From NCBI GenBank assembly GCA_965250305.1, contig CBDFNS010000025.1, positions 618,766-682,765 on the forward strand: 64,000 nt of DNA, written 5' to 3'. Position 1 is the stretch's first letter. Each line of letters opens with the position of its first letter. Below are positions 2,702-35,242 of this stretch, piece by piece. The position numbers were made by a program, and so were the translations under genes. The notes beneath the pieces are model-generated. The model searched no databases, was not told the DNA's origin, and saw nothing but the letters and a program-made list of their open reading frames with translations. This stretch comes from Candidatus Multivoradales bacterium (GTDB lineage Bacteria > Acidobacteriota > Thermoanaerobaculia > Multivoradales > J023).

Positions 2702-3514
2702 TCAAACACCAGTCAGAGGGTGCGACGAGAATATGGCCTCGTGAGCATGACATCGATGGCGAGGATCCGATGGCAATCGGCAGGAGCGCGAAACTTCAAG
2801 GATATGAAAACTGCTATATAACCGTTTAAGATCCGAGTGATTAGCGTTGCTGACAACAACGCAGCATCCCTTCACGGCAAGGCGTGCTGCCACCTCGGCC
2901 AACCGTTCTTGATCCCGCCACGAGAACAACCTCTCGTTGTATCGCCTGAATCCGTTGTTGTCGTGACGCGTCGTATAAGGTGGATCGAAGTAAACTAGGT
3001 CTCCGGATCCAGCTCCCTTGACGATCTCCTCGAAGTCGGCGCAACGCAGCACCGCTGCTTCAAGACAATGGGAAGCATCCAATATTCTCTCCCTGGATAC
3101 TATGCCGCGGTCGTTATAGCCCGCATATGGCACGTTGAATTCTCCCGCCTGATTCACGCGATACATTCCGCCCCAACACGTACGGTTCAGGAAAACGAAC
3201 TGGGCAGCTCTACGATAGAGACTGCGATAGTTTGAACGGCGAATCGCATAAAACTCCTCGGAACAGTTGTTCCATGGCCTCAGATACCTCAGAACTAAGT
3301 CGGGTCGGCTTTGGACAGCGAAAAAAGCTTCTACCAGGCTCTCATTGACATCCCCCAGCACGGCTTTAGAAGGTCCAAGCGCGAAAAAAAGGGCGCCGCC
3401 GCCAAGGAACGGCTCATAATAGGTAGCTCCTTTGGGCAGCGCTAGACGAACTGCGAGCTTCGGAGCTATCCACTGCTTGCCCCCCGGCCATTTCAGAAAA
3501 GGCAGAGTGTTCAT
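2702..3514 (-). CDS. Dam-family (D12 class) DNA N6-adenine methyltransferase, 270 aa
   Basis: FLKWPGGK, EPFLGGGALFF, FLNRTCWGGMYRVN..FNVPY and catalytic DPPY; ATG at 3514 lies 1 nt after the upstream stop. Confidence 0.9.
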   Translation of the reverse strand: MNTLPFLKWPGGKQWIAPKLAVRLALPKGATYYEPFLGGGALFFALGPSKAVLGDVNESLVEAFFAVQSRPDLVLRYLRPWNNCSEEFYAIRRSNYRSLYRRAAQFVFLNRTCWGGMYRVNQAGEFNVPYAGYNDRGIVSRERILDASHCLEAAVLRCADFEEIVKGAGSGDLVYFDPPYTTRHDNNGFRRYNERLFSWRDQERLAEVAARLAVKGCCVVVSNANHSDLKRLYSSFHILEVSRSCRLPSDPRHRCHAHEAIFSSHPLTGV

Positions 3515-3515
3515 C

Positions 3516-6476
3516 TCAAGTACTGTACTTCCCTTTCGGAGGCCGAGCCGGCAAGGAGCTGCGATCAAGAATGTCGTATCTCCAGTACCTTCCGTTCGGC
3601 TCGACGGGAGAATAGGTGTAGCCTTCGGGCCGCTTATAGATGACAGTAGGATAGCCGTGAGTAAGTGCTCGGATCGACAGAGCAAGAGAGTGCGGTTTCG
3701 GGCCGAAGCATAGGTAGAAAGTATTTTCTCTTCCTGGTCGTTCTAGCGCCGCTGATTCAAGAACATGCATGGCCGCCACGGCATCGCCGGCGGGAGCCTC
3801 AAGTTGCTGGCAGGAAGGGACTGCATACCTCTCTAGCAGAGCGCGATTTGCGCCCTGCGCGATCTCTCGATAGTGGAGATCTACTTCCGGTGTCGGCAAG
3901 AGGGTTGAAATGCGATCCGGATCTTCTCTTGCGACGACTCTGGACGAGAACGCGCCTTCAAAACCCAACGAGATCAGGAAAAACTTTCTTCCGCCTGGCT
4001 CATGATGACCACGAAGACCAGGAATGGGAAACACTTCCCATCGACCCTTTGTAAATGGAATATCACGCCCGGAGTCGTCGGGAAGGGCGGCCAATGGGTA
4101 TTGACCCTCCGCATAGAAAACTGTCGCTTCCGCCACCAGGCCAGCTCTTAGGAAATGCGAAAGTAGGCCCAACCAGAAGAATCGCGGCCAGCCTGTTGAG
4201 TCAAGTAGCATCGAAAGTGGGCGTTCTACCTCCCGTGCGGTACGCGCAACGCCCTCGCTCGCTTTTCTTAGTACAGTTTTCCAAGATGATCTCAGGTCGC
4301 CTGGCTCCAAGAGTATTGGCAACTGTTCACCGCTGATTCTGCGCCCATAAGAAAACAAGCGGTGATAGATACCCTCCTGAATCCAGACCTCCTGACCTAC
4401 CCCTCTTCGAAAAAGTCCGGTTGAGCCTCGTTTGGGGTGTTCCGAGGGCCTGGGAAGGCCCGGCTGCGCGTTGGCTTTGCGCAGCTCCGCGTTGATCTTG
4501 CTGCGCTCGGGGTTGGGGACATCGCGGGTGGCGTCTGCGGGCTCGGTGTCGTAGTCCACCAGCGCGTCGAGTGCGAATTCCTCGCGCAGGTACTTGAAGA
4601 AGTTCTCCTGCCGCCAACGATCGAACATGCGGTAGGCGACTTCGATGGTGGAGAGGTCCCGGCGCGAAGTAATGATCGGCGTCTGGTGGCCGTTGTCGCT
4701 CAGGCAGGTGACCTGTCGCAGGAAAACGCGCTGGCGCTTTTTCTTCCGACCATACTCGAGGTAGATACGCTGATCGGCGAGGAGATACTCGAGCTTGCGT
4801 CCGTGGATCGTTTCCTTGATCTGCACGAACGCGCTCAACGGCACCGGGCGAAAAGGGGCCTTGCGATACGTGAGGATATCGAACCTCTCGGCGATGAGCT
4901 TGGCAAATAGCTTTGGGCTCCAGCCCCCACGGTCGAAAACGACGGTAACTCGTCGGTCTCCGAGTAGCTTTCGTACCTCTTTGAGAACGATGGGGAGCAT
5001 CGCTGCGAGCCCTTTGTTGGCCTCGGCTGGAACCACGAAAAGAGGCTCGCTCTGGGCATCATTGATCCAGTAGTCCGTGGTCGCCGGCATGGCGATGCGT
5101 ATCCGTGCCACGTGCGTTTTGGGGATCTCTCGGTCGCCGTGGTAGGCGCGCACATGCCCGTCCACATAGAGGAAGCCCATGGCATGTCCCCGCGTGGCGA
5201 CCCGACGCTGCGCCAAGGCACGGCCAAAGTCGCCAGCCCGGCCATGAGCTGCGAGTCGGGCGAGCTTGTTGCGCAGAGTCTTCACCTCTGGTGCGCGGTC
5301 GAGTCCGAGAATCTGACCCAGCTGGCGAGGTGAGCGTTCCTTGAGCCCTTCGGGTCGCTTGATCCGCAGCAGCGCCATCAAGAGCAGGGTCACCACGGTG
5401 GTGCGCAGCCCGTAGAAGGCAGGCCCGATGCTGCCGTAGATCTCGCGGGCGATGGATAGCACGCCGCTGTCCATGAGTGCAGGAATCGCCAGCAGAGCAC
5501 CGAGGCCTGGGACCTGGGTCGCCGCTCCGAACACCGGTGCCGCATCATTGAGCAGTCCCAGCCTCGCCAGAAGCCGATCGCCAGCGCGATCGGCCGGATC
5601 AAGGTCCAGCGACAAGGGGGCCCGATCCAGGTCGGGCGCCGAAGCGGACAGTTTTGGGTCCGCACCCTCTCGGCCCCCACCGTCGCCGGGATCGAGCGTG
5701 GGATTGGCGTCGGTAAGGGCGTCGTCGGCCAGCCGTTCGCCAGAAGCGGACAGTTTTGGGTCCGCACCCTCTCGGCCCCCACCGTCGCCAGGATCGAGCG
5801 TGGGATTGGCGTCGGTAAGGGCGTCGTTGGCCAGCCGTTCGCCAGAAGCGGACAGTTTTGGGTCCGCACCCTCTCGGCCCCCACCGTCGCCAGGATCGAG
5901 CGTGGGATTGGCGTCGGTAAGGGCGTCGTCGGCCAGCCGTTCGCCAGAAGCGGACAGTTTTGGGTCCGCACCCTCGAAGGGCATCGTCAGCTGCTCTGCC
6001 GGCCGTTCCTTCCAGCCTAGGCGCTTCACGAGCTTGCGGACGGCCTTCTCATTGATACCGAGCCGCCGGGCGATCTCACGATTCGACACACCCTCGGCCT
6101 TCCAGCCATTGACCGCGTCCTCGCGGGCCTGCGGCACCCGCGGCCGTCCCCGTGGAAATCCACGTGGCCGCCCCAAGGCACACAGCCCACCCTCCTCGAA
6201 GCGGCGCTGGTGCCGACGCACAGTGCGAACATCGCAGCCAAAAGCGCGCGCAACCTCGGTCTGCCGTGCCCAGCCCAAATCAACGAGGCACACCATCGCG
6301 TGGGCCTCGCCGGCCTTGTCGCTAGCAGCGAAGTGGGCAAGCGGCAGGCCACAGACAGTCGCAACCTGGTAACCGCCCCTCAGCAGGAGGCGGCAGCGAT
6401 CGTTGATGACCACGATCCCATCGGGAATCCCGGCGTGGTCTGCGAAGAGGACGTTCTCGTCGGCCGTCGGTGCCAT
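3516..6476 (-). CDS. Transposase (HTH + DDE) reading through its IR in frame into the target gene (986-aa chimera)
   Basis: N-terminal HTHs (QTEVARAFGCDVRTV, SNREIARRLGI) and DDE-like YVDGH, VFDRGG, RWRQENFFK; junction ..GQEV|WIQEGIYH.. Confidence 0.75.
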   Translation of the reverse strand: MAPTADENVLFADHAGIPDGIVVINDRCRLLLRGGYQVATVCGLPLAHFAASDKAGEAHAMVCLVDLGWARQTEVARAFGCDVRTVRRHQRRFEEGGLCALGRPRGFPRGRPRVPQAREDAVNGWKAEGVSNREIARRLGINEKAVRKLVKRLGWKERPAEQLTMPFEGADPKLSASGERLADDALTDANPTLDPGDGGGREGADPKLSASGERLANDALTDANPTLDPGDGGGREGADPKLSASGERLADDALTDANPTLDPGDGGGREGADPKLSASAPDLDRAPLSLDLDPADRAGDRLLARLGLLNDAAPVFGAATQVPGLGALLAIPALMDSGVLSIAREIYGSIGPAFYGLRTTVVTLLLMALLRIKRPEGLKERSPRQLGQILGLDRAPEVKTLRNKLARLAAHGRAGDFGRALAQRRVATRGHAMGFLYVDGHVRAYHGDREIPKTHVARIRIAMPATTDYWINDAQSEPLFVVPAEANKGLAAMLPIVLKEVRKLLGDRRVTVVFDRGGWSPKLFAKLIAERFDILTYRKAPFRPVPLSAFVQIKETIHGRKLEYLLADQRIYLEYGRKKKRQRVFLRQVTCLSDNGHQTPIITSRRDLSTIEVAYRMFDRWRQENFFKYLREEFALDALVDYDTEPADATRDVPNPERSKINAELRKANAQPGLPRPSEHPKRGSTGLFRRGVGQEVWIQEGIYHRLFSYGRRISGEQLPILLEPGDLRSSWKTVLRKASEGVARTAREVERPLSMLLDSTGWPRFFWLGLLSHFLRAGLVAEATVFYAEGQYPLAALPDDSGRDIPFTKGRWEVFPIPGLRGHHEPGGRKFFLISLGFEGAFSSRVVAREDPDRISTLLPTPEVDLHYREIAQGANRALLERYAVPSCQQLEAPAGDAVAAMHVLESAALERPGRENTFYLCFGPKPHSLALSIRALTHGYPTVIYKRPEGYTYSPVEPNGRYWRYDILDRSSLPARPPKGKYST

Positions 6477-6586
6477 ACCCGATCATGCATTGGCACAGGG
6501 AAAAAAGCGGACAGTTTTGGGTCCGCACCTACGACAGCGTAGGCCCAGAAAACTCGCCAATTTTAAAGGGTATGTCAGGAGTTCTG
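4384..6586 (-). mobile_element. Unclassified (ISNCY-like) IS with HTH+DDE transposase and 5-bp TSD GAATC
   Basis: IRs CAGACCTCCTGACCTACCC (4384-4402) and GGGTATGTCAGGAGTTCTG (6568-6586), 17/19 match; GAATC at 4379-4383 and 6587-6591. Confidence 0.85.
5641..5975. repeat. 102-bp in-frame tandem repeat (3 full units plus a 29-bp partial) inside the transposase
   Basis: Units start at 5641, 5743, 5845 and 5947; encode a 34-aa repeat (EGADPKLSASGERLADDALTDANPTLDPGDGGGR). Confidence 0.95.
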
Positions 6587-8528
6587 GAATCCCGTCCGGG
6601 TCACTGTCCGACATCTTCACAAGAAACGTCGACCCGACGCGCAGGTCGGTTGCCTGAGTGATACTGCTGCTTCGTAGATCCCAGCTTGGAGATAGGAAAG
6701 CGATGTCATAATGCCTGCCAAGCAGACTGCCGGGATCTGCCTCCAAATAACTCCTCGCAGTCACGAATCCATCAGCGAACTCTGTTTGCAGTTTCATATA
6801 TCACTCGTAGTCGAAGAGCGATGGCTCATTATCGATGATGGGTTGCTTTGCAAGCCGATCGATGGTCCGTCGATATGTGGCTGGGTCTTCTGCCAGGCGG
6901 ATCTGGGTAAGATCACGGATGTCGATCGACATGTCGTAGTAGGCGCCTCGATACGAGAAGTCAAAGCTCGCTGCTAACGATGTGTGTACACGGAATCGAA
7001 ACTCCGATACCGATGAATCAAGGATACGGAGGTAGCCCGTATCTGCGGTCTCTTCGATCAATGCAATGGTTTCGAGGTCGGACGCGGAGCGATATTCTCT
7101 AGGATCAAATACAAAGCGCCCTCGTTCAGATGACCGTAGGGCTTCGGCACCCGTCACATCACCCTGGACAAGGGCGGTGAGTGTTGCCAGACCCTCTACG
7201 AGGCGTTTGGCCTCGCTGGGGGCGCCGACTCCACTAGCTTCTAGAGAGTTGCGCTTTTGGTCGCTTGCCATTCTTAGGGCCTTGGCTTGTTGTCGCCAGT
7301 GTACCCGCTTGCCCTTCAGGATCTGATTTGAGCTTGTCCGAAAAAGGAAGTCCATGAACAAGAGGAAGTCGCGGATGCAGTTGTCACTCATTTGCAGGAA
7401 CATTTCTGCGAACGCGTAGCGAGGTCTCTGCCGAAGCTCCTTGAATAGCACAAGATAGGCAGCTACCATTCGCTTCCTTATCTCACGGCTTTTTTGGGCG
7501 CGACGTCGCCACGCGGGACTATCTGGCCTGGGCAACTGAAGATTCAGTCTTTCAGCTAGGAAGGTCTGGTAGATCGGGGGTGCTTCGCCCTCCTCGCTGG
7601 AGGTAGTGAACAGTGGGGAGTTAGCGAGACCCTGAGATTTCTTCAGCCACTCCTTGGCAGATTCGCTCTCAGCCTTCTTGAGTGCGTCCATCAACAAGAG
7701 GTTCAGATCCAGATGGCCGAGAGTCTCTCCGATGTTGAAGTCTCCGGAGTACTCTGGTTCGTGTGCTCGAAGGCGTACACTGGAAACGCCAATCGCTAGC
7801 TCGCGGAATTCAGAGCCTTTTAACTCATCTATGAGGACTACAAAGCGGTCTGCGTTTTGGAGATCCATTCCTTTACCGAGAAAGGTGCTAGTGGGGTCAG
7901 GCGGTAGCCGTACAAATGAGAGGACTGGAAACACCGGAAACTCGGCGAGGCGAACGATAGTATTCATGGTCTTGATTCCAAACGGACTCAGTGCCTCGCT
8001 CTCGTCGTAACAAACTCTGAAGGACCAGCGCCGCGAGTCCTCGGTGGCGGAGTCACAGTACTCGGCCAACATGCGTCCGACTACTCGCCCCAGGTGGCCT
8101 ATCTGTCCAGACGGGTAGTCTTCTATTAGGCCGGAGAGAGGTTTTTGGCATCGAGAAGACCGGTCCAAACGGACCCTTAGGTTTCTAAGGCGTGTTGCGA
8201 GACCGAGGAGCGTAATGTGACGCCCACGCGGGACCGCGTCCCTTAATTCTGGGAATCTTGCAACGATGGACGCAGTGACACTGTGCTCTGACTCAGGCTC
8301 TCCGACAAAGATCTCGGTGTCAACCAGTTCCACTATAGCTCTGCAAGCGATTTCTAGCCAAGCAAGGTCGAGATAGAGTGCTAAGATTTCTGCACGAGTT
8401 TGATTGGGTATTTCCTGAAGCCATTCATCGAACGACTGCATGGAGAGGGCAGAAATCTTGAGGTAAATTCCCATCTTACGATCCGCGAACGGACCGTTGG
8501 GGAGAACGCTAGCCAAGTTTTCATTAGT

Positions 8529-9820
8529 GGCTCTTCAGGATTTCGAGTGGGTGAAGGTTTCTGGATAGAGGTCCAAGCCACCAAGATGGAAGTAGATGGC
8601 ATTGCGAAAACGCTCTCGGTTGCGAAAGCCCCTTGCTGCTCTTTTCAGACCCTGGATGACGGTGTTGATACCTTCAAGGCGGGCATTGGTGATTCCGAGT
8701 TCGATGGCGTTGAGAATTCCGGTGAGGTGATTCTTGATCGTTTTCGCAGCGCGCTTGATCGGTTCGAGTCGAGAACGAATCGCCCATGAGTAGAAGGCGT
8801 CGAAGACCGTCTGAGCATCGAGCCGATTTCCGGCCTCCCACATCTCCATACCGAGTTCTTTGATCATCCAGGCACGCCCAGTCTTGAGTGCTTTCTTGAT
8901 CAGCTGGTCGAGTTTCACGGCTCGCTCTTCTCCGAGGTGATCCGGGTGGAAGAGCCAAAGGTAGCGTGTGTTCTTCAGACTCTTGTCCCCGACGGCGAAA
9001 AGTGCGCGATTCTCGGCTCGTCGCACTTGATCCACGGCCTTGCCGAGGTGCATGGCAACGTGGAACTTGTCGAATGCGATCTTCTCGTTGGCGTCGGGAA
9101 GAGCGGCTAAAGTGTCCGATATGTACGGTCCCCACATGTCCATGGCGACGCTCTCGATCTGACCCAATTCGCCTTCGCTGAAGCTGTCGTAGTAGGCGCC
9201 AAGGGCTCCCTTCTTATGGCCATCGGTGACGTATTGGACGCATCCGGTCTCCAGATCCGCGACCACCGTCACGTATTCATGCCGCTTCTGGAACGACATC
9301 TCGTCAACGCCTATCCGTCGAGGCACTTTCAAATCACGACGTGCAAGCCCACGCCGGACCGCACGCTCCATCACCCCACTCACCTGGTCCCAAGTGACGT
9401 CGAGCTGCCGCGCCACGGCTGAGATCGTCGCTTCCTGGAGCCAGTCGATGATCAACGCTTCAAAAAGCGCAGTGAAGCCCGAACCTGGATCCGACCACGG
9501 AACGCTCATCGTCTTGACCCCGTGCTCCGGGCAACGAACCCGTGGGACATCGGCGACCAGAATCGTCTTGTACTGGCAGGTCGGGAGGTGCCGCCACCGG
9601 CGCCAACGGCTGTCGTACCGACTGCTCGCCTCTCCACATTCAGGGCACGACAAAGCTTGCTCGCGCCCATGCTCGACAAAAACCTCCACCTCGCCATCAC
9701 CAAGCCGGAGGGATACGTCCGTCACCTTCCAAGGCGCTGAAACGCCAAGGATTTGCCCATATAGGTCGGTATCTCGCATTCACCGAGCCTACACCGACCC
9801 ACCATCTCTCCTGAAGAGCC
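8529..9820 (-). mobile_element. ISL3-family IS, copy 1, with 8-bp TSD TCATTAGT
   Basis: IRs GGCTCTTCAGGA / TCCTGAAGAGCC; TSD at 8521-8528 and 9821-9828. Confidence 0.95.
8535..9779 (-). CDS. ISL3-family transposase
   Basis: Zn finger CPECG..PRVRCPEHG, IGVDE, VAMDMW, FDKFHV, TNARLEGINTVIQ, ARGFRN. Confidence 0.95.
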   Translation of the reverse strand: MRDTDLYGQILGVSAPWKVTDVSLRLGDGEVEVFVEHGREQALSCPECGEASSRYDSRWRRWRHLPTCQYKTILVADVPRVRCPEHGVKTMSVPWSDPGSGFTALFEALIIDWLQEATISAVARQLDVTWDQVSGVMERAVRRGLARRDLKVPRRIGVDEMSFQKRHEYVTVVADLETGCVQYVTDGHKKGALGAYYDSFSEGELGQIESVAMDMWGPYISDTLAALPDANEKIAFDKFHVAMHLGKAVDQVRRAENRALFAVGDKSLKNTRYLWLFHPDHLGEERAVKLDQLIKKALKTGRAWMIKELGMEMWEAGNRLDAQTVFDAFYSWAIRSRLEPIKRAAKTIKNHLTGILNAIELGITNARLEGINTVIQGLKRAARGFRNRERFRNAIYFHLGGLDLYPETFTHSKS

Positions 9821-10001
9821 TCATTAGTCAACCTCTCCTTGACTGAAAGTGCCTTGAGCAGGGTGGTCTTACCGGCGCCGCGCGAACCAACGATGTAGAC
9901 AGGACGTGATGTCTCTAGGATGGAGAGGGCCTTTTGAGACAAGAAGTAGAGTGGGCGTTCTTCATACTCAAACCGATTCTCCGAGAAGGGGGAATGTGGC
10001 T

Positions 10002-11291
10002 TCACTCGTTGATCCTCCGGACTTGCCAGCGTTCAGGCTCAGCTTCTCGGTCAAGAATCTCTACGAGGGCCAGCCACTCGCAGTCGCGAAGGGTCTCTGC
10101 GAGGGTCGCTGGGCGAATCTGGCGGCCAACCTGATCACGAGCGAGACCTAGGACGTCCTTGAATCGGCGAAAATTCGTTGGAATATTCCTGACAAGGGCT
10201 AAGGTGTCCTCTCCTAGGATGCTGAGTGCCTCTCGTGACGCATCACCTTGAAGTGGCAAACGCACTCGGTCTCTTTGTTTGACGAGCCCGTCAGACTTCA
10301 TCAAGTACTTTGTCACAATGCAGCCTAGCGGGTAGCCGCTCTTGCTGTACTCGATGTCTATCGCGTTGAAGCCATCTGACAGGAGCGGTGCAGAGATCGA
10401 GAAAATGGGTGAGTTAATATTCTGTGGGTCCGTTACGACTTCGACTTCGCCATTGTGAGTGTGTCCATGCAGGTACAAGATCGTCGGATTGGCTCCGGAC
10501 AGTTGCCGGCGAGCAGCTCCGCTATTGAGTAGGTGGCCGTAGAGCGCGACCTGAGTGAGCATCTGAGGCAACAGGTTGTGGTGGGTCAGAAGCAAGGCGA
10601 CGTCCGTAGTCTTTGATGCTTCAAGGTGCGAGGCGAGTTCTTGGAGGTCCTCTTCGAGGAAGGCTGGTGTGTCGAGAGTCTCTCCCAGAATATCGAAGTT
10701 CTTGTGGCGACCGCTGCTATTAATGTGTTCCTGTAGTAGCTGTTCCAAGACGGTCTTGATTGGTTCCGGATAGCTTCTCAATTCTCCACAGCCAATACAG
10801 GAGTTGATCGAGAAGAGCTGTACGCTGTTCCCAGCGGCGTTGCTCAACAGTGTCTTTCGTAGACCTTCGAGTTTGAAGATGGAAATGTGACATGCGTTCC
10901 AGCTCGCACCAAGGGGGCGGAACTTTTCAAGAAGTTCTGTGGATTCCTGCGCGACACCTCTGTCTACGTCGTGGTTGCCTGGTACAACGTGAATCTTATC
11001 TCTTGAGATTCTGCTTAGCGTTAGCGCTTCTGCAAGGTATTTTACACACTGCTTGTAGCCTTCGAGGTCGCCCCGAGACGTCAGGTCCCCGCAGATTGCG
11101 ACGCCATCTGCGGTTCGCACCTTATCAGCGAGTTTTCGGACGACTGTCTGAAGACGGTTGGGGGCGACAGCGGTTGAGAGGTGCTGGGGAAAACCTGGGT
11201 CTTTGATGTCACATTCTAGAGTGGCCTGGCAATCAGGCAGGTGAACATCGCCAATGTGAAGGAGTCGAATTGTTCGTGTTTCTGGCCTCAT
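10002..11291 (-). CDS. Calcineurin-like metallophosphoesterase with a C-terminal extension (possible wHTH)
   Basis: Full motif set HIGDVH, CGDLT, VPGNHD, LTHHN, LHGHTH; stop overlaps the NTPase ATG (ATGA). Confidence 0.9.
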   Translation of the reverse strand: MRPETRTIRLLHIGDVHLPDCQATLECDIKDPGFPQHLSTAVAPNRLQTVVRKLADKVRTADGVAICGDLTSRGDLEGYKQCVKYLAEALTLSRISRDKIHVVPGNHDVDRGVAQESTELLEKFRPLGASWNACHISIFKLEGLRKTLLSNAAGNSVQLFSINSCIGCGELRSYPEPIKTVLEQLLQEHINSSGRHKNFDILGETLDTPAFLEEDLQELASHLEASKTTDVALLLTHHNLLPQMLTQVALYGHLLNSGAARRQLSGANPTILYLHGHTHNGEVEVVTDPQNINSPIFSISAPLLSDGFNAIDIEYSKSGYPLGCIVTKYLMKSDGLVKQRDRVRLPLQGDASREALSILGEDTLALVRNIPTNFRRFKDVLGLARDQVGRQIRPATLAETLRDCEWLALVEILDREAEPERWQVRRINE

Positions 11292-12790: not shown

Positions 12791-14059
12791 ATGCCGAGAC
12801 GCCTGAGCCAGGAGGAGATCGTGACGATACGCGTACTGGCCGAGAAAGGTCAGAATCATTGTGAGATCGGGCGCACGGTGGGTGTGACGGAGAGCACGGT
12901 GCGGTACCACCTACGGCGCTCGGCCGAGGGCGCGGAGGATGGGCGTCGAGACAAACCACAGCGAGCCTCTACGCTGACGGAGGTGATCGCTGCGTGGCAC
13001 GCAGATCGAGAGGGCTACGCACGCCCGATTAACGTGATGGAGCTGTACGAGCACCTGGTGGGCGAGTACGACTACCCGGGCTCGTACCAGTCGGTGCGCC
13101 GCTTCGTTCGCCGGCACTACCCGAAGCCGCGGATGCGGACCTATCGACGAGTCGAGACGGTACCGGGAGCACAAAGCCAGACGGACTGGGCGGAGTTCCG
13201 CAAAGTCGATGTCGGCGCGGGCCCAGAGCCACTCTCGGCGTTCGTGATGCAGCTGTCGCACTCGCGCAAAGCGGCTGTGGTGTGGAGCCGTCGCAAGGAT
13301 CTGTTGAGCTGGCTGGCATGCCACAACGCCGCCTTCGAGCGCCTGGCTGGGATCGCGGCGGTCAACCGGATCGACAATGTCCGCACGGCGCTGGCCTCGG
13401 GAGCCGGGCCGTGGGGCACGATACACCCGGCCTACCGGGCCTACGCTCGGACCGTGGGTTTCCACGTGGACGCCTGCATGCCGCGGGATCCGCAGGCCAA
13501 GGGCAAGGTGGAGGCCGCGGTGCGGCTGTCACGTCTGCGTGTCGATCCGAGGCCGCAGTGTTTCGATCACCTCGAGGACCTGCAACACTGGACGGATGCA
13601 CGCCTTCTGGCTTGGTCGAAACGGGCGCTCTGCCCAGCGACAGGCCTCACCGTCGATGAGAGCTGGCATCGGGAGCTCGAGCGGCTGCAGCCGCTACCGA
13701 TCCTGCCCGAGCCGTTCGACATGGCGGTCACCCGGCCGGTGCACAAGGACTGCATGGTGCGCTTCGAGGAGCGCTCCTACCCGGTGCCCTTCCAGTGGGT
13801 CGGGCTACGCGTGGAAGTGCGCGGCTGCGCCGGTAAAGTCCAGATCCTGGCTGAGGGGCAGGTGCTTCGCGAGTACCGACGGCACACCCCGGAGCGCATA
13901 CTGATCGATCCGAGTTGCTACGAGGGTGAGGCCACCGATCGCGTGTTACCGCCGAGGCCGCTTGGCAAGATGGGTCGCAGGCTGCAGGAGATCTACGAGC
14001 AGCCAGTCGAACAGAGACCGGTCGATCTGTACGCCGCCCTGGCAGAGGTGGCGCGATGA
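12791..14059 (+). CDS. istA: IS21 transposase IstA
   Basis: HTH, ETVPGAQSQTDW, RIDN, PQAKGKVE motifs. Confidence 0.95.
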   Translation: MPRRLSQEEIVTIRVLAEKGQNHCEIGRTVGVTESTVRYHLRRSAEGAEDGRRDKPQRASTLTEVIAAWHADREGYARPINVMELYEHLVGEYDYPGSYQSVRRFVRRHYPKPRMRTYRRVETVPGAQSQTDWAEFRKVDVGAGPEPLSAFVMQLSHSRKAAVVWSRRKDLLSWLACHNAAFERLAGIAAVNRIDNVRTALASGAGPWGTIHPAYRAYARTVGFHVDACMPRDPQAKGKVEAAVRLSRLRVDPRPQCFDHLEDLQHWTDARLLAWSKRALCPATGLTVDESWHRELERLQPLPILPEPFDMAVTRPVHKDCMVRFEERSYPVPFQWVGLRVEVRGCAGKVQILAEGQVLREYRRHTPERILIDPSCYEGEATDRVLPPRPLGKMGRRLQEIYEQPVEQRPVDLYAALAEVAR

Positions 14060-14823
14060 CAGCGCGAAAGGGAAAGGTCGACCTCGATGCCACCTGCGCG
14101 CAGCTCGAGCAGGCGGGCTTGGCCCATGCCGCCGCCCGACTCGCGGAGCTGGTCGAGGAGGCTGCGAAGCAGCAGCTTTCAGCCCACCGCTTCCTCGACC
14201 GGGTCCTGACGGCCGAGCTCACCGAGCGCGAGGAACGCCGGATCAAGACGTCGCTGCGACTCTCCGGACTACCCACCGGCCAGACCCTCGGGAACTTCGA
14301 GTACGGCTTCCAGCCGTCGATGGAGAAGAGTCGCATCGAGACCCTCGCCACCTGCGCCTGGATCCGTGAGCACGCCACAACGGTGATCGCCGGACCCCCG
14401 GGAACGGGCAAGACTCACATCGCCATCGCTTTGGGCGTCAAGGCGATCGAGAACGGCTTCTCCGTCGCCTTCTTCCGCCTCGACGATCTACTGCACGCCA
14501 TGAAGCGCGACGCCGAGTTGGCGCCGCAGCGGCTACGACGCAAGAAGTACAACAACGTCTCGATGTTGATCATTGATGAGGTGGGCTTTCAGCCGCTCTC
14601 CCGGCCCGAGGCGAGCCTGTTCTTCCGCCTGGTCAGCTACCGATACCAGCGAGGCGCGACTCTGATCACCACCAACAAGGCGGTCAAGGACTGGCCCGAA
14701 ATCCTCGCCGGCGACGAAGCCATGGCGGCAGCGCTGCTGGATCGCCTGCTGCACCACTGCTACGTCTTCAACATCAAGGGACGCAGCTATCGACTCAGGG
14801 ACCTCGAGAGGATCCTCAAGTGA
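14056..14823 (+). CDS. istB: IS21 helper ATPase IstB
   Basis: GPPGTGKTH, LIIDEVG, LLDRLLHH, GRSYR; ATGA overlap with istA. Confidence 0.95.
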   Translation: MTARKGKVDLDATCAQLEQAGLAHAAARLAELVEEAAKQQLSAHRFLDRVLTAELTEREERRIKTSLRLSGLPTGQTLGNFEYGFQPSMEKSRIETLATCAWIREHATTVIAGPPGTGKTHIAIALGVKAIENGFSVAFFRLDDLLHAMKRDAELAPQRLRRKKYNNVSMLIIDEVGFQPLSRPEASLFFRLVSYRYQRGATLITTNKAVKDWPEILAGDEAMAAALLDRLLHHCYVFNIKGRSYRLRDLERILK

Positions 14824-15621: not shown

Positions 15622-16485
15622 ATGGGTGAGGGATGCGATGTAGCAGTGGACCTTTCCTCCAATGTGCGGCGTTGGATATCCCGCCAAGCCGCCGTCGGCG
15701 AGGAATCGCTCACAGATTGGCTCCTCTACGAGCTGTCTGATCGGCTTTCCTGGGTCCACTATCTGAAGTTCAACCGGCACCAAGAAGCACGCTCCACAGG
15801 AGCAGACTGGGATTGGTGGTTCGTTGGGGACGGCGGCAGTCTTGCTCTAAGAGTTCAAGCAAAGCGTCTGCGCTTCGGAGAAGATTGCTACAAGGGCCTT
15901 GCACATACGAATCGACATGGCCTGCAGATCGAGAAACTGATCGAGAGTTCAACTTCGAAAAACCTGATGCCCATGTATGCATTGTACTCTTCTCCCAGTT
16001 CCGATCCTTCCCTTCTCTGCGGAGGCAGACCCGCGGCAGCAGGCCAGGATGGTGTCTTCATTGCTGGCGCCATCGAGCTATATAACGGGTTCATCACTAA
16101 AGGCAGGGGCAAAGTCGAAGCTAGCGAGGTACTGGAACGGTCCAATCCATTGTCCTGCCTATTCTGCTGCCCGAAATCGCCACTGGCACGAGCTGTTGGA
16201 GGCGGTCCAGATCGTTTCAGCGACTGGTTCCGGATCTACTACAAGGACACTGTTGAAGGGATGATGGATCGTCTCCAAAAGCAGAAGATTCGGAATATCC
16301 GCGAAGACCAATCGCCAGGATTCCATAGGGAGCCTGCGCCTGCGGTGGTTGGTGCACTTCAGAACATCGAAGAGGGAATTCCAGACTGGTATGAGCAGGA
16401 ATTCTCCCGATACATGGATGATACAAACGCGCTTGTGATCTTTGATTTGCGCGGGCGCTTTGAGGATCACCATTATGAGCCGTAG
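15622..16485 (+). CDS. DUF6615-like protein, probable PD-(D/E)xK nuclease fold, carried as a gene cassette
   Basis: EESLTD, E..TGADWDWWF and LRVQAKRL motifs; stop codon lies in the attC R'' box. Confidence 0.7.
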   Translation: MGEGCDVAVDLSSNVRRWISRQAAVGEESLTDWLLYELSDRLSWVHYLKFNRHQEARSTGADWDWWFVGDGGSLALRVQAKRLRFGEDCYKGLAHTNRHGLQIEKLIESSTSKNLMPMYALYSSPSSDPSLLCGGRPAAAGQDGVFIAGAIELYNGFITKGRGKVEASEVLERSNPLSCLFCCPKSPLARAVGGGPDRFSDWFRIYYKDTVEGMMDRLQKQKIRNIREDQSPGFHREPAPAVVGALQNIEEGIPDWYEQEFSRYMDDTNALVIFDLRGRFEDHHYEP

Positions 16486-17350: not shown

Positions 17351-18787
17351 CTAGCAGGCCGTGGTGAAACCCCAATTGGCCCGCAACGAGAGTTCGCTGG
17401 CGATCGGTATGAAGGCCAGTGTTCTGTACGCGGATCCGAGGCGAGATTGGGCTTGGTAGGCGCTCGTCGCCTTGAAGGGGGCCAAACAACGTGGAATGCG
17501 GTTCCAAAAGGTAAGAAAAAGGCCGACAAGGGCCGCTTTCCGGTCTCTGAGACCCTTGGGCGTGCCGCTTCCGACGAGTTCGCGCATGACGAGGCCGAGA
17601 TTCAAACCGACTATGTGTACAAGGAGCCGCTTGCGAATGTTGGCGTGGCGGCGAAGGTGACATCGGCGGAGATTGCCTGACTCGTAACCATGGGCAAAGC
17701 CGCGTTCGAGCTTCTCGCCGCGTTGGCGTAACAAGGCTTTTCCTCGCTCGCCTCGAATGCGACGTCGATTGGCGTACGTTGCATCGCGCTCGGCCGGCTT
17801 CCCCTTCCAATTTCGACGGCCCCGACTGGGTTCTGAGATGTAGGAGCGAATGCCGTGATCGCGACACGCGGTAACCACGGCATTCGAGTGATAGCCCTTG
17901 TCTGCGACGATCTCGGCCATCGGTGTGTCGCTGACTCCTTCTGCGCTCTGCGGATCCGCGACGACCGCGCCAAGTGTCTCGAGGGCCTCCGAAATCGTTT
18001 CTTCAAAGGTCTGTGTGTCGCCCTTGCAACCGCCGTTGATCGTTACAGCTACGACCGCACCGCTGTCCATGTCGACGGCATGCTCGACCTTGTGAGCAAG
18101 TCTGGTACGACCGTCTTTCATCTTGGTGATCTTGGAATCCGGATCGTTCGGATTCGTCCAATCGTCGTTCTTGCCCTTGCCTTTACGTTTGCGATCCAGC
18201 TTCGCCAGATCTGATCGCGTCGGCGTCTCGATTCCTGAATCTTTGGCAAGCTGCTCCAGGAACTCGTCATACCGCTCGCCGCTGTCGCGGCGCACGATGC
18301 TGCGCAGAGCCGCATTCGCTTCCAACGTCGTCGAGTCAATACCAAGCGTCTTCGCACGAAGGAGGCCTGACTTTGCCAGCGTCCGAAGTGCCCACACGAA
18401 GACCGCTTGATGGCTCTCCAGTGAAATCAGCCGTCGATTACGAGAAATCGTCGAATGATCCGGTGGTGCGTCGCTGAGCTCGTAGCCCAGAAACTCGCGC
18501 AGCGAGATCGAGTCAGCTACGCGCCAAGCAATGCCACGCTCGGAATCGATCCCTTCGAAGTAGCCGATAAGAAGCAGACGAAAGTACACGGCCGAAGCAA
18601 GAGACGGGCGACCGACCTGGTCCGCGTAGAACTGAGCGCATTCGTTCTCGACGAAGGCGTCGAAGTCGTGCTTGTTCAAGAGCTGATTCAGCCGACGGTA
18701 GAACGGGTGGCCGGGCCCTCGAGCTAAACGATCCGCCCGAACGAACAACGAACGCTGCTGATTCTTCTTTCGTCGGCCCATCGCCAT
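17351..18787 (-). CDS. IS1182/IS5-like DDE transposase
   Basis: GRPS..Y, PDHSTISR, GIDST, VADKGYH, EKLERGFAH; stop TAG supplied by the CTAG target. Confidence 0.9.
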   Translation of the reverse strand: MAMGRRKKNQQRSLFVRADRLARGPGHPFYRRLNQLLNKHDFDAFVENECAQFYADQVGRPSLASAVYFRLLLIGYFEGIDSERGIAWRVADSISLREFLGYELSDAPPDHSTISRNRRLISLESHQAVFVWALRTLAKSGLLRAKTLGIDSTTLEANAALRSIVRRDSGERYDEFLEQLAKDSGIETPTRSDLAKLDRKRKGKGKNDDWTNPNDPDSKITKMKDGRTRLAHKVEHAVDMDSGAVVAVTINGGCKGDTQTFEETISEALETLGAVVADPQSAEGVSDTPMAEIVADKGYHSNAVVTACRDHGIRSYISEPSRGRRNWKGKPAERDATYANRRRIRGERGKALLRQRGEKLERGFAHGYESGNLRRCHLRRHANIRKRLLVHIVGLNLGLVMRELVGSGTPKGLRDRKAALVGLFLTFWNRIPRCLAPFKATSAYQAQSRLGSAYRTLAFIPIASELSLRANWGFTTAC

Positions 18788-24274: not shown

Positions 24275-25440
24275 TCAGATTCGGAGGATCACCCCAAACC
24301 CCGCTGCACCCCACGAACAACCGTCTGCGCCAGCATGACCCCATGCACCATCGGCGGTGAGAAATGGTAGAGCATGCCGATAGGCGCCTTGACCATCCAC
24401 GACGCGCGCAGCACCGAGCGCAGAGCGCGTGGCGTGAGGCGTGAGGCGATACACGACGCGGCGCCGTGCCGAGCGCATGAGGTAGCTGACGGCGTTGGCG
24501 GCGGCGCGCTGGCGCTTGGAGCCGGGAGTGGCCTTTTCGAAGCCGGCGACTTTCTCCAGGATGTCGCGCAGGAAGGTATCTTGCTCGGCACGTAGCTGGG
24601 TGGCGAGCTGGCGATCGTTGGCCGGCAGCCGCGCGATTTCCTGGGGCGTGAGGCTGGCGACTTGAACGGCGAGGTCGACGTGAAGCTGCTCGTGATCGCC
24701 GAGCGCCGTCAGGCGCCGTTCGGCATCGCGCAATGCCCTGCGTAGTGCAGGGCGGTCGTCCGCCGAGGCGCGACCGAGCTCGAGCGTCAAGCGCTCGCGA
24801 CTGGCCATGGCTCTGTTCATCTTGTCGAGATCGCGCAAGGTGCGGCGGATGGCGGCGAGGCGGACTTTGGGATCGCCGATGGCACGCGGTGCCCGTGGTT
24901 CGAGCCGCGTTTCCCGTCGTGGCCGTAAGGCGCGCTCCTCGGCCAGCAGCTTCTCGGCTAGGGCTCGCGATATGTGGTCCAGGACGAGATCCTTGCGCGG
25001 CACCCTCGAGAACGCCTTCGCCAACGCGTCGAGATTCTTGATGTAGCGACGCGGCACGACGACGCGGAGCGTCTTGCGGTGCCTCGTGAGGCCGACGTAC
25101 GCTGCACCGCGGTCGATCAGGGAGTCGGCGAGCAGGTAGGCACGGTCAATGGTGATGCCTTGGGCCTTGTGGATGGTGGTGGCGTAGCCGTGGGCGAAGC
25201 CGTGATAGTTCTTCGGATCGAAGGCCACCAGCCGGCGATCGTCGATGCGGACGCGCATCTCCGTCTTCACGATCGCCACAATCGAGCCCAGGCTGCCGTT
25301 GCGCACGCCGCCCTCGCCTTCTAGGACCCGCACCACCTTGCCCTTGGGGTCGTTGGCGCCGAGCAGGAGGCGGTCACCGACCGAGTACTGCCGGCCCGCA
25401 AGCCGAACACCGCCTTGGATCTCGCCGGCATCGCGTCGCG
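24275..25440 (-). pseudogene. traA: C-terminal helicase part of a Ti-type conjugative relaxase (TraA-like)
   Basis: GDRLLL..ND, GVRNGSLG, HGYATTIHKAQGITID, YVGLTRHR; relaxase domain absent. Confidence 0.75.
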
Positions 25441-25830
25441 CTCGGCGATTCATTTGCGACCGCAAGAGAATGGGCCTCGAGGCGTCGGAATTCATCCGTC
25501 GCTTCCTCCTGCACGTCTTGCCTCGGAGGGTTCGTAGCAAGCGCTACTTCGGCCTGCTTTCAAATCGCAGCCGCTCCGAGACAACCAGACAGCTGCGCCT
25601 GTTGCTCGATGTCGTGGTAGAGGCAGCGATGCCCGATGCCTCTGAGCCGAGCTCATGGGAGGAGCAGCTAACGCGCCTCGTCGGTAGCGATCCCAAGTGC
25701 TGCCGGAACTGTCACGGACGCTGCCAGAATTCGCGTTAGTGAACACGAAGTTTGACGACCCCTCAAGAGATCGGGTGACGAGGCGAGTTGGCGTCCAGCG
25801 GGCTACGGTAGCCGGCTGGAGGTCAGTCCG

Positions 25831-27099
25831 ATGCCGAGACGCCTGAGCCTGGAGGAAATCGTGACGATACGAGTACTGGCCGAGAAGGGTCAGAATCATT
25901 GTGAGATCGGGCGCACGGTGGGTGTGACGGAGAGCACTGTGCGGTACCACCTACGGCGCTCGGCCGAGGGCGCGGAGGATGGGCGTCGGGACAAGCCACA
26001 GCGGGCCTCTACACTGGCGGAGGCGATCGCGGCGTGGCACGCAGATCGTGAGGGCTACGCCCGCCCGATCAACGTGATGGAGCTGTACGAACACCTGGTG
26101 GGCGAGTACGACTACCCGGGCTCGTACCAGTCGGTGCGCCGCTTCGTTCGCCGGCACTACCCGAAGCCGCGGATGCGGACCTATCGAAGAGTCGAGACGG
26201 TACCAGGAGCGCAAAGCCAGACGGACTGGGCGGAATTCCGCAAGGTCGACGTCGGTTCGGGCCCAGAGTCACTCTCGGCCTTCGTGATGCAGCTGTCGCA
26301 CTCGCGCAAAGCAGCTGTTGTGTGGAGCCGCCGCAAAGATCTGCTGAGCTGGCTGGCGTGCCACAACGCCGCCTTCGAGCGCTTGGCCGGGATCGCGGCG
26401 GTCAACCGGATCGACAATGTCCGCACGGCGCTGGCCTCGGGAGCCGGGCCGTGGGGCACGATCCACCCGGCCTACCGGGCCTACGCTCGGACCGTGGGTT
26501 TCCACGTTGACGCCTGCATGCCACGGGATCCGCAGGCCAAAGGCAAGGTGGAGGCCGCGGTGCGGCTGTCACGTCTGCGTGTCGATCCGAGGCCACAGTG
26601 TTTCGACCACCTCGAGGACCTGCAACGCTGGACGGATGCACGCCTTCTGGCTTGGTCGAAACGGGCGCTCTGCCCGGCGACAGGCCACACCGTCGATGAG
26701 AGCTGGCATCGGGAGCTCGAGCGGCTGCAGCCGCTACCGATCCTGCCCGAGCCGTTCGACATCGCGGTCACCCGGCCGGTGCACAAGGACTGCATGGTGC
26801 GCTTCGAGGAGCGCTCCTACCCGGTGCCCTTCCAGTGGGTCGGGCTACGCGTGGAAGTGCGCGGCTGCGCGGGCAAAGTCCAGATCCTGGCTGAGGGGCA
26901 GGTGCTTCGCGAGTACCGACGGCACACCCCGGAGCGCATACTGATCGATCCGAGTTGCTACGAGGGTGAGGCCACCGATCGCGTGCTACCGCCGAGGCCG
27001 CTTGGCAAGATGGGTCGCAGGCTGCAGGAGATCTACGAGCAGCCAGTCGAACAGAGACCGGTCGATCTGTACGCCGCCCTGGCAGAGGTGGCGCGATGA
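25831..27099 (+). CDS. istA: IS21 transposase IstA
   Basis: Near-identical to 12791-14059. Confidence 0.95.
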   Translation: MPRRLSLEEIVTIRVLAEKGQNHCEIGRTVGVTESTVRYHLRRSAEGAEDGRRDKPQRASTLAEAIAAWHADREGYARPINVMELYEHLVGEYDYPGSYQSVRRFVRRHYPKPRMRTYRRVETVPGAQSQTDWAEFRKVDVGSGPESLSAFVMQLSHSRKAAVVWSRRKDLLSWLACHNAAFERLAGIAAVNRIDNVRTALASGAGPWGTIHPAYRAYARTVGFHVDACMPRDPQAKGKVEAAVRLSRLRVDPRPQCFDHLEDLQRWTDARLLAWSKRALCPATGHTVDESWHRELERLQPLPILPEPFDIAVTRPVHKDCMVRFEERSYPVPFQWVGLRVEVRGCAGKVQILAEGQVLREYRRHTPERILIDPSCYEGEATDRVLPPRPLGKMGRRLQEIYEQPVEQRPVDLYAALAEVAR

Positions 27100-27863
27100 C
27101 CGCGCGAAAGGGAAAGGTCGACCTCGATGCCACCTGCGCGCAGCTCGAGCAGGCGGGCTTGGCCCATGCCGCCGCCCGACTCGCGGAGCTGGTCGAGGAG
27201 GCGGCGAAGCAGCAGCTGTCGGCTCACGGCTTCCTCGACCGGGTCCTGACGGCCGAGCTCACCGAGCGCGAGGAACGCCGGATCAAGACGTCGCTGCGAC
27301 TCTCCGGACTACCCACCGGCCAGACCCTCGGGAACTTCGAGTACGGCTTCCAGCCGTCGATGGAGAAGAGTCGCATCGAGACCCTCGCCACCTGCGCCTG
27401 GATCCGTGAGCACGCCACAACGCTGATCGCCGGACCCCCGGGAACGGGCAAGACTCACATCGCCATCGCTCTGGGCGTCAAGGCGATCGAGAACGGCTTC
27501 TCCGTCGCCTTCTTTCGCCTCGACGATCTACTGCACGCCATGAAGCGCGACGCCGAGCTGGCGCCGCAGCGGCTACGACGCAAGAAGTACAACAACGTCT
27601 CAATGTTGATCATCGACGAGGTGGGCTTTCAGCCACTCTCCCGGCCCGAGGCGAGCCTCTTCTTCCGCTTGGTCAGCTACCGATACCAGCGAGGCGCGAC
27701 TCTGATCACCACCAACAAGGCGGTCAAGGACTGGCCCGAAATCCTCGCCGGCGACGAAGCCATGGCCGCAGCGCTGCTGGATCGCCTGTTGCACCACTGC
27801 TACGTCTTCAACATCAAGGGACGCAGCTATCGACTCAGGGACCTCGAGAGGATCCTCAAGTGA
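27096..27863 (+). CDS. istB: IS21 helper ATPase IstB
   Basis: Near-identical to 14056-14823. Confidence 0.95.
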   Translation: MTARKGKVDLDATCAQLEQAGLAHAAARLAELVEEAAKQQLSAHGFLDRVLTAELTEREERRIKTSLRLSGLPTGQTLGNFEYGFQPSMEKSRIETLATCAWIREHATTLIAGPPGTGKTHIAIALGVKAIENGFSVAFFRLDDLLHAMKRDAELAPQRLRRKKYNNVSMLIIDEVGFQPLSRPEASLFFRLVSYRYQRGATLITTNKAVKDWPEILAGDEAMAAALLDRLLHHCYVFNIKGRSYRLRDLERILK

Positions 27864-31880: not shown

Positions 31881-31939
31881 CAGCCGAAGGGCTGGTCTTG
31901 GCCCGCGACCGACGCGGCGCCAAGGAGGATCGTGCCGAG

Positions 31940-35166: not shown

Positions 35167-35242
35167 TGGTAGGCCGTATAGGGATCGAACCTATGACCCG
35201 CGGATTAAAAGTCCGCTGCTCTACCAACTGAGCTAACGGCCC
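35167..35242 (-). tRNA. tRNA-Lys (anticodon UUU), 76 nt with encoded CCA
   Basis: Minus strand reads GGGCCGTTAGCTCAGTTGGTAGAGCAGCGGACTTTTAATCCGCGGGTCATAGGTTCGATCCCTATACGGCCTACCA. Confidence 0.97.

Follow-up and report, generated by a model that had tools for sequence, protein, structure and literature searches.

In the PUA-Cal-HAD system, the Dam methylase of the host gives rise to N6-methyl-deoxyadenosine monophosphate (m6-dAMP) upon degradation of the chromosome by phage, a sensor binds this nucleotide, and a Calcineurin-CE effector depletes the deoxynucleoside triphosphates (dNTPs) (bioRxiv 10.64898/2026.01.15.699771). According to the same preprint, the genetic neighbours of Calcineurin-CE effectors include N6-adenine methylases unaccompanied by restriction enzymes, and also operons that make modified bases. 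In addition, the authors of a study on related systems have proposed that ORC-like ATPases sense the DNA of selfish elements (bioRxiv 10.64898/2026.10.19.760177). In the present study, we analyzed a four-gene operon in a 64-kb stretch of DNA from Candidatus Multivoradales bacterium of the phylum Acidobacteriota (assembly GCA_965250305.1, contig CBDFNS010000025.1, positions 618,766 to 682,765; the whole stretch is called the window). Its genes, A to D, encode a metallophosphoesterase, an ORC-CDC6-like ATPase, a two-domain CARF-like protein and a Dam-family methylase, respectively. The operon belongs to a widespread family that, by its sequence, resembles a bacterial anti-virus system. We tentatively read it as a horizontally mobile, modular conflict system, probably directed against phages, which would combine a sensor made of B and C, a nucleotide-destroying effector and a base-methylating partner, and of which the window holds a recently inactivated copy.

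Translation of the open reading frames (ORFs) of the window placed the four genes on the minus strand between positions 11291 and 2702, with two insertion sequences (ISs), called IS1 and IS2 here, inside the middle genes (aa, amino acids; nt, nucleotides; bp, base pairs; HTH, helix-turn-helix):

11291-10002, minus strand: gene A, calcineurin-like metallophosphoesterase, 429 aa, uninterrupted
10005-9821, minus strand: gene B, 5' piece, 61 codons + 2 nt, N-terminus and Walker A motif of the ORC-CDC6-like ATPase
9820-8529, minus strand: IS1, ISL3 family, 1292 bp, matching termini, splits gene B
8520-6801, minus strand: gene B, 3' piece, 572 codons + stop
6797-6587, minus strand: gene C, 5' piece, 70 codons + 1 nt, start of the CARF-like N-domain
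6586-4384, minus strand: IS2, 2203 bp, Transposase_29 and HTH domains, imperfect terminal inverted repeats, splits gene C
4378-3516, minus strand: gene C, 3' piece, 286 codons + stop, remaining N-domain and entire second Rossmann-like domain
3514-2702, minus strand: gene D, Dam-family N6-adenine DNA methyltransferase, 270 aa, uninterrupted

Gene B runs from a GTG start at 10005 to a stop codon at 6803-6801, gene C from an ATG start at 6797 to a stop ending at 3516, and gene D begins with ATG at 3514. The tight spacing described in an earlier note on this DNA agrees with these coordinates, with 3 nt between B and C and 1 nt between C and D; the overlap of A and B, given there as ATGA, in fact reads GTGA (10005-10002). 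When the ISs were removed in silico, each together with one copy of its target-site duplication, gene B became a frame of 1905 nt (634 aa) and gene C a frame of 1074 nt (357 aa), both with 0 internal stops, so that the claim of middle genes split by ISs and rejoinable without a frameshift holds. Moreover, the rejoined B matched the profile of its intact homologs over positions 3-634 of 651, and the rejoined C did so over positions 4-342 of 345. As the note had also said, the ORF track conceals the operon, its middle genes being split by ISs. In the case of gene C, the transposase frame of IS2 is continuous, in frame, with the 3' part of the gene, and the resulting 986-aa ORF (3516-6476) masks C in the ORF track; it possibly encodes a transposase-C fusion protein. 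The scan for promoters and terminators was uninformative, giving 1 promoter-like site against 3.1 expected.

The two interruptions are genuine ISs. IS1 encodes a 414-aa transposase (PF01610, E 4.8e-66) and is flanked by an 8-bp target-site duplication, ACTAATGA, at 9828-9821 and 8528-8521; the transposase gene of IS2 matches PF21804 (Transposase_29) with E 5.8e-63, and its 5-bp duplication, GATTC, lies at 6591-6587 and 4383-4379. In the same 7.7-Mb genome, six full-length copies of IS2 at 100% identity were found, the present copy counted, and IS1 is represented by the present copy, one 100% identical copy covering 1-1171, one copy at 96% and nine at 89%. Within the transposase gene of IS2, three tandem units of about 102 bp, 98% identical, lie at 5637-5975 and encode a 34-aa acidic, proline-rich segment between the HTH and catalytic regions. 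With respect to the state of the interrupted operon, the window proteins kept 51 of the 55 conserved columns in A, 76 of the 84 covered in B and 61 of the 65 in D (a column being conserved when at least 90% conserved among homologs, of which 15 were used for A), and all the catalytic motifs of A, B and D were retained, namely the phosphoesterase motifs, Walker A and DPPY. Because identical IS copies are present elsewhere in the genome and the conserved residues of A, B and D have been kept, the knock-out appears to be recent, and the system not yet decayed. Judged from these letters, the system is dead in this genome, with B and C split by two active ISs and A and D intact. The genome is 97.9% complete by marker genes, and its dead copy shows that the system can be dispensed with and that IS activity put it out of action recently. 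Another two loci, L013 and L039, which belong to one lineage and are nearly identical in C, lack Dam, and gene A of L013 is reduced to a fragment (4759-5070). This lineage is a second case of decay of the system.

For comparison, 37 loci other than that of the window were collected by pattern scans, namely 3 genomes, 33 metagenome contigs and 1 viral contig (IMG/VR), and scored with local profiles; the genome hosts were Spartobacteria, Sulfuricella and Bryobacteraceae metagenome-assembled genomes. There is some redundancy in this set, C being identical in L021 and L022 and again in L026 and L028. B lies directly upstream of C in all 25 loci that have at least 300 nt of upstream sequence, and A in turn directly precedes B in 21 of 21. 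Of the 34 informative loci, 26 carry Dam; in 23 it adjoins C on the downstream side, the placement exceptions being L010 (upstream), L027 (inverted) and L040 (3 kb off). Thus, the four genes proposed in the earlier note to act together are co-conserved in distant lineages. A fifth member was also sought. The 782-aa ORFs beside the system in L013, L027 and L028 and the 786-aa ORF in L014 were rejected as candidates since they are not homologous to each other, and a comparison of the 90 flanking ORFs of 20 loci gave no common gene and one weak cross-locus pair only. The statement that the operon comes without a restriction endonuclease was borne out as well: no fifth gene is conserved beside it, and no restriction endonuclease model matches A, B or C.

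The family of C is large and patchily distributed. A profile search covering 1.84 billion representatives yielded 1004 representative clusters at E <= 1e-3, and 223 passed the stricter limit of E <= 1e-30; most of the proteins are 330-360 aa long. Among 401 genomes of the phylum of the window, 3 carry the family, the window's own genome counted. Homologs of C were also found in 31 plasmid records, of which 28 are conjugative. The plasmid hosts of distant C homologs were Agrobacterium, Sinorhizobium, Ensifer, Bosea and Mesorhizobium. On one Agrobacterium plasmid (NZ_CP049219.1, 272997-277444), an A-B-C triad matches the profiles with E values of 1.9e-79, 3.5e-105 and 1.7e-48; its A is annotated as a metallophosphoesterase and its B and C as hypothetical proteins, and no methylase is annotated within 7 kb. 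No match to C was obtained from the phage collection. At one of the 37 loci (L002), the operon directly follows a P2-type gpA gene (PF05840, E 1.3e-95), and in P2-like prophages the neighbourhood of this replication gene A is a hotspot of anti-phage cargo. Furthermore, PADLOC and Pfam matches in the flanks included type I and type IV restriction enzymes, SoFic, AbiU, AbiV, DndB/DpdB/PbeA, AIPR, HepT and three PDC candidates; a resolvase and a relaxase were among them as well, and ordinary housekeeping and metabolic genes stood alongside. This survey of the same 90 ORFs, with the 25 commonest families listed per library, is qualitative and carries no background rate.

Gene B belongs to the ORC-CDC6-like family PF24389. 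Its two pieces match this family at positions 4-57 (E 1.2e-9) and 74-570 of 571 (E 1e-27), and intact homologs match over positions 5-571 with E 2e-58 and 2e-52. The Walker A motif GSRGAGKTT is readable in the translation of the 5' piece, in which G40, R42, G43, G45, K46 and T47, invariant across 18 B homologs, are all present. The 3' piece had no NCBIfam match, the PADLOC matches of B were P-loop noise only, and PDB sequence searches with B and with A likewise returned noise only. PF24389 was detected in 11 of the 401 genomes of the phylum, a tally that takes in one unpublished genome (G049) used for no other result.

No Pfam or NCBIfam family was matched by the pieces of C. The 5' piece is collinear with the N-termini of intact homologs of 336-362 aa, and the 3' piece shares 35-50% identity with 8 intact homologs (proteins of 286-362 aa) in a word-indexed search. 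Six PADLOC profiles named CARF6--CARF_CARF_CARF match C over almost the whole length of the profiles, the best with E 1.5e-10. An AlphaFold2 model built on a 120-sequence alignment shows two alpha/beta domains (predicted local distance difference test score, pLDDT, 95.3; predicted template-modelling score, pTM, 0.93), and the N-domain modelled separately reached a pLDDT of 92.6. The top seven PDB matches of this N-domain were all to the Csm6 CARF domain of T. thermophilus (E 7e-4 to 4e-3), with template-modelling (TM) scores (TMq) of 0.47-0.51 and root-mean-square deviations (rmsd) of 4.3-5.0, a likeness that is moderate and not decisive; Csa3 with cyclic tetra-adenylate (cA4) followed with probability 0.97 and TMq 0.48. 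The Pfam family HFX_2341_N matched the N-domain of 1 of 10 relatives at 26.6 bits against a cut-off of 30, and 2 more gave weaker matches. The CARF consensus [DN]X[ST]XXX[RK] lies after the fourth strand. In C, the invariant residues D128 and R134 belong to a D.S...R motif that follows the fourth strand, the place of this signature. Whole-C fold searching also gave one CARF protein, 9jxx, with E 6e-4. A sequence search of the PDB with the C profile returned noise only, and the ESM Atlas search returned only unnamed clusters. An interpretation of C as a tandem universal stress protein (USP)-like protein of the cation-chloride transporter type was considered and rejected, as TM values of about 0.23-0.26 with rmsd of 17-19 were taken to indicate two Rossmann-like domains and not homology. 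The term "tandem CARF-like" of the earlier note can accordingly be kept in part: C has two Rossmann-like domains, of which the N-domain is nearest to the Csm6 and Csa3 CARF folds, and the CARF likeness is shown for that domain only.

The second domain of C is the more conserved one, with a mean column identity of 58% against 45% for the N-domain, and it is this domain that meets B in a model of their complex. Built with the proteins of L002, the model gave an interface score (ipSAE) of 0.75 in three runs, against 0.00 for the best of 3 controls; 58 of 80 solved complexes, but also 2 of 110 mismatched pairs, come up to this mark, a calibration that is only rough here because our own alignments were used. 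At least 73% of the contacts were common to the runs, and the pLDDT of the partner was at least 84. The modelled interface joins the second domain of C (185-259 and 313) to the N-terminal ATPase module of B (10-15, 47, 80-118 and 172-183). The modelling thus supports binding of B and C to each other.

Calcineurin-like phosphoesterases bear the metal motifs D.H, GD, GNH[DE], H and GH.H. Gene A matches their Pfam family, PF00149, at 50.2 bits over residues 8-280 (cut-off 21.5), and in an alignment of 15 homologs its metal-binding residues G14, D15, H17, G68, D69, G105, N106, H107 and D108 fall in conserved columns, as do H237, H238, H275, G276, H277 and H279. The best NCBIfam match of A was NF053862, "DS9_1 anti-phage phosphoesterase" (E 4.3e-15), followed by NF053861 (E 1.6e-5). 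By its sequence, A stands outside the NF053862 family, though this is the nearest NCBIfam model. None of the SbcD/Mre11 models of NCBIfam matched A at E <= 0.1. Because HD-CE and SIR2 proteins occupy the same slot in relatives, anti-phage phosphoesterase models are the nearest, and no SbcD/Mre11 match was obtained, our analysis favours nucleotide degradation: A is more likely to destroy nucleotides, in a dNTP- or NAD-type abortive infection, than to cut DNA.

Gene D is a clear Dam homolog, with 203 bits against TIGR00571 (cut-off 114.85), E 5.5e-43 against PF02086, and a DPPY motif of which D177, P178 and Y180 are conserved. In the comparison loci, however, Dam is not the sole occupant of its place. 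A ThyX-like gene occurs in 6 of the 34 informative loci and takes the place of Dam in 4 of them: in the Dam-less loci L011, L018, L024 and L035, a ThyX homolog on the same strand directly follows C (Pfam Thy1, E 3e-38 to 8e-53), and L010 and L030 have both Dam and ThyX. The ThyX-like proteins of L010, L011, L018 and L024 carry a C-terminal extension of about 90 aa. Similar genes accompany more distant ORC-CDC6-like systems, and the positions within the loci are as follows:

L011, 1503-2495: ThyX-like gene near C
L018, 1379-2443: ThyX-like gene near C
L024, 766-1764: ThyX-like gene near C
L035, 720-1499: ThyX-like gene near C
L010, 7987-9003: ThyX-like gene near C
L030, 1511-2338: ThyX-like gene near C
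L056, 4533-5450: ThyX-like gene near a distant ORC-CDC6-like system
L061, 8948-9925: ThyX-like gene near a distant ORC-CDC6-like system
L062, 8699-9625: ThyX-like gene near a distant ORC-CDC6-like system

In each of the three genomes checked, the ThyX linked to the system is an extra copy, since ThyA is encoded elsewhere in two (G034 and G040) and another ThyX in the third (G399). In a quick tree of C, in which many forks are open, three ThyX loci fall in one clade with Dam loci, and L035 stands apart on a long unresolved branch. Literature searches for ThyX in defence gave nothing relevant among the matches listed. Dam is thus not obligatory, and the earlier suggestion that the methylase marks self DNA is weakened as the whole story by the absence of Dam from 8 of 34 loci, in 4 of which a ThyX-like gene stands instead.

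Distant relatives, taken from the loci around PF24389 genes in the phylum of the window, retain the B-C pair and have other proteins both in the effector slot (HD-CE, SIR2) and in the slot for methyl transfer:

L057: Dam, A, B and a C-like gene
L058, 477-5427: HD-CE, B, a 300-aa remote C homolog (hhalign probability 98%, E 2e-13) and a C5 cytosine methylase
L056, 4533-10152: N6_N4 methylase, B, a C-like gene and a ThyX-like gene
L061, 5019-9925: a protein-kinase-ORC fusion, a remote C homolog (hhalign probability 95.8%) and a ThyX-like gene
L062, 3978-9625: SIR2, a kinase-ORC fusion and a convergent ThyX-like gene

Taken as a working model, the constant core of the system would be the ORC-CDC6-like AAA+ ATPase B bound to the two-domain Rossmann protein C, with the C-terminal domain of C docked on the ATPase module and the CARF-like N-domain left free for a small nucleotide ligand. 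This pair may serve as a sensor and switch over an exchangeable effector. In the operon of the window, the output would be the metallophosphoesterase A, which is predicted to deplete nucleotides and so to bring about abortive infection. The enzyme of the fourth slot, here Dam and elsewhere a C5 methylase, an N4/N6 methylase or a ThyX-like protein, would supply a modified deoxynucleotide, and the CARF-like domain might sense this nucleotide once a phage degrades the chromosome. A signal at the level of nucleotides is preferred over self-marking because the putative sensor is a Rossmann protein of the small-ligand type, the methylases vary in their chemistry and, above all, a ThyX-like enzyme can stand in the slot. 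The most specific form of this proposal holds that CARF-type sensors are not restricted to cyclic oligoadenylates, and that C, mounted on an ORC-like ATPase, reads methylated deoxynucleotides, which would be m6-dAMP where Dam is present, m5-dCMP or m4-dCMP where another methylase stands in its place, or a 5-methyl-pyrimidine nucleotide that the ThyX-like enzyme of the operon makes directly. We regard this form as improbable.

Several points weigh against the model. No gene linked to the operon encodes a nucleotide cyclase or synthetase, and the defence role is one that we infer from genomic context. The match of A to NF053862 scores 55.5 bits, where the cut-off is 420, and is confined to positions 193-295 of 486, with the N-terminal motifs. 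In 4 of the 34 loci and in the Agrobacterium plasmid region, the one such region read, neither Dam nor ThyX lies nearby, so that the system does not depend on having a modifying enzyme of its own. A constitutive ThyX product would be an odd alarm signal, and an operon methylase with sequence specificity also fits self-marking of the restriction-like or BREX-like kind. The CARF assignment rests on TM values of about 0.5, the PADLOC match and the HFX_2341_N match below threshold; moreover, the fold search with whole C was led by tandem USP-like domains (TM 0.23-0.26), and the N-domain and C-domain of C gave an hhalign probability of 0.1% against each other, with no significant internal duplication.

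The main alternative is an epigenetic system like restriction or bacteriophage exclusion (BREX), in which the methylase marks self DNA, the ORC-like ATPase, loaded on DNA and with C as an accessory, reads the mark, and A cuts the unmethylated DNA of the invader in the manner of an Mre11/SbcD-type nuclease or blocks its replication. In favour of such a system, 26 of 34 loci have a methylase, which mostly overlaps C or lies a few bases away, and among relatives its type varies (Dam, C5, N6_N4) in the fashion of restriction-modification systems. ATPases of the ORC/Cdc6 clade are DNA binders, no restriction endonuclease would be necessary if A were a nuclease, and the combination of an adenine methylase with an AAA+ ATPase and an enzyme of the phosphoesterase type recalls the parts of BREX (10.1101/2025.10.09.681413). 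We nevertheless consider this explanation doubtful. Dam is absent from 8 of the 34 loci, and the ThyX that stands in 4 of these is incapable of marking DNA in a sequence-specific manner; the A-B-C triad of the plasmid, in the single region read, has no adjacent methylase. Furthermore, the HD-CE and SIR2 proteins found in the effector slot of relatives are not DNA nucleases, A has no SbcD/Mre11 match, none of the four genes is matched by a BREX, DISARM or restriction-modification nuclease model, and the CARF-like domain would be left without a role.

Two further explanations are each far less probable than that, and differ in what they make of C and of the mobile setting. If C sensed cyclic or linear oligoadenylates made elsewhere in the cell by type III CRISPR, by cyclic oligonucleotide-based antiphage signalling systems (CBASS) or by a similar system, the operon would be an effector module acting in trans, in which C activates the ATPase and the phosphoesterase, and Dam and ThyX are passengers. 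The nearest solved folds, the cA4-binding CARF domains of Csm6 and Csa3, the filing of the family by PADLOC with CRISPR-accessory CARF profiles, and the want of a signal-producing enzyme in the operon would all fit; yet no cas or cyclase genes occur in the 90 flanking ORFs, among the 25 commonest families listed per library, and methyl-transfer enzymes, in distant variants too, accompany the genes so closely and so repeatedly that this hardly looks like hitch-hiking. Such a module seems very unlikely. The operon could also have no part in immunity, being a selfish addiction or maintenance cassette or serving replication or repair on plasmids and prophages. Such a role, to which we assign an equally slight likelihood, would agree with its occurrence on conjugative plasmids and beside a phage replication gene, and with the housekeeping relatives of ORC-like and Mre11-like proteins; it agrees poorly with the exchange of SIR2 and HD-CE in the effector slot, which is typical of conflict systems, with the very patchy distribution (3 of 401 genomes), and with the loss through ISs in a 97.9%-complete genome, which marks the operon as dispensable.

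With regard to the wider surroundings, the earlier note had placed the operon in a tRNA-linked island. This link is unproven. The sole tRNA gene of the window lies 24 kb from the operon, with many ISs in between, and a second copy of its 3' end, sought as an island border with up to 3 mismatches, was not found. The other features of the window that bear on this question are as follows:

35167-35242: tRNA-Lys
33938-35056: integrase, adjoining the tRNA-Lys
509-1714, 12791-14823, 17351-18787, 25831-27863 and 28874-30165: IS genes, namely an ISAzo13-type transposase, two IS21 elements (istA/istB), an IS5/DUF772-type transposase and a second ISL3 element, which is 88.5% identical to IS1 in gene B
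15622-16485: accessory-looking gene, DUF6615 protein
24275-25540: accessory-looking gene, weak UvrD_C/viral helicase and DUF922 protein
31864-32589: accessory-looking gene, DUF4268 protein
32746-33591: accessory-looking gene, GP88-family protein

The last four genes, situated in the stretch that separates the operon from the tRNA-Lys/integrase pair, may represent further island cargo.

As to novelty, no system model of PADLOC-DB v2.0.0 or NCBIfam 20.0 covers the operon, and the four-gene operon was not found to be described in full-text literature searches, which did not cover Nicastro et al. 2023 and Makarova et al. 2020, two probable catalogues. The searches on Calcineurin-CE returned the PUA-Cal-HAD preprint alone as relevant, and those on HD-CE and PRTase-CE nothing relevant. 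The earlier description of the operon as undescribed therefore stands insofar as no PADLOC v2 or NCBIfam system fits, and is not certifiable, the Pfam family PF24389 and the PADLOC CARF6 profiles being curated already; there is a roughly even chance that the four-gene architecture is in print as a prediction. In any case, a sizeable family of C proteins is spread on plasmids and prophage-like elements, with B and C labelled hypothetical in RefSeq. With a B-C core that stays the same, while the effector (metallophosphoesterase, HD-CE or SIR2) and the methyl-transfer enzyme (Dam, C5, N4/N6 or ThyX) can be exchanged, it offers a modular test bed, which bears on the immune use of DNA methylation without restriction enzymes and on the ligands of CARF-like domains outside CRISPR. 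The recurrent ThyX-like partner was unexpected. If the most specific form of the proposal, given above as improbable, were true, the methylome, or a dedicated nucleotide methylase, would act as an alarm signal that unleashes nucleotide-destroying effectors, the principle of PUA-Cal-HAD would extend to a second, unrelated sensor class, and a thymidylate-synthase homolog would gain a role in immunity.

Among known systems, the CARF sensors of type III CRISPR resemble C in fold, the N-domain being closest to Csm6 and Csa3. Can1 has two CARF domains in one chain. C differs from these sensors in that it is free of an effector, is linked neither to cas nor to cyclase genes, and is predicted to dock on an AAA+ ATPase. 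The PADLOC profile CARF6--CARF_STK_AAA is echoed by the kinase-ORC fusions of L061 and L062 ("STK_AAA"); the CARF6 profiles, which presumably derive from Makarova et al. 2020, each stand in PADLOC for an accessory protein by itself, which is not combined there with A, B and D into a system. With the systems that pair a "CE" effector with an ORC-CDC6-like NTPase, the operon shares a B that is a full-length member of PF24389, which Pfam numbers close to HD-CE (PF24391), and in one relative HD-CE replaces A.

BREX likewise combines an ATPase of the ORC/STAND clade (BrxC), a phosphoesterase-type enzyme (PglZ) and an adenine methylase (PglX) without a classical restriction endonuclease, and it too occurs in defence and mobile contexts. 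In contrast, no part of the operon is homologous to BREX at the family level, no BREX model of PADLOC matched at E <= 0.1, and the operon methylase is of the small D12/Dam type and in some lineages is dispensable or replaced by ThyX. The operon resembles PUA-Cal-HAD, which has a calcineurin-type effector and a separate ligand-sensing domain and depends for its function on Dam, with no restriction enzyme involved. The protein behind NF053862 may be the PUA-Cal-HAD protein, and the matched positions 193-295 of 486 fit the place of its Calcineurin-CE domain. The differences are as follows: the operon has neither PUA nor HAD, sensing would be performed by a CARF-like protein on an ORC-like ATPase, and the Dam methylase, which PUA-Cal-HAD borrows from the host, is here encoded by the operon itself.

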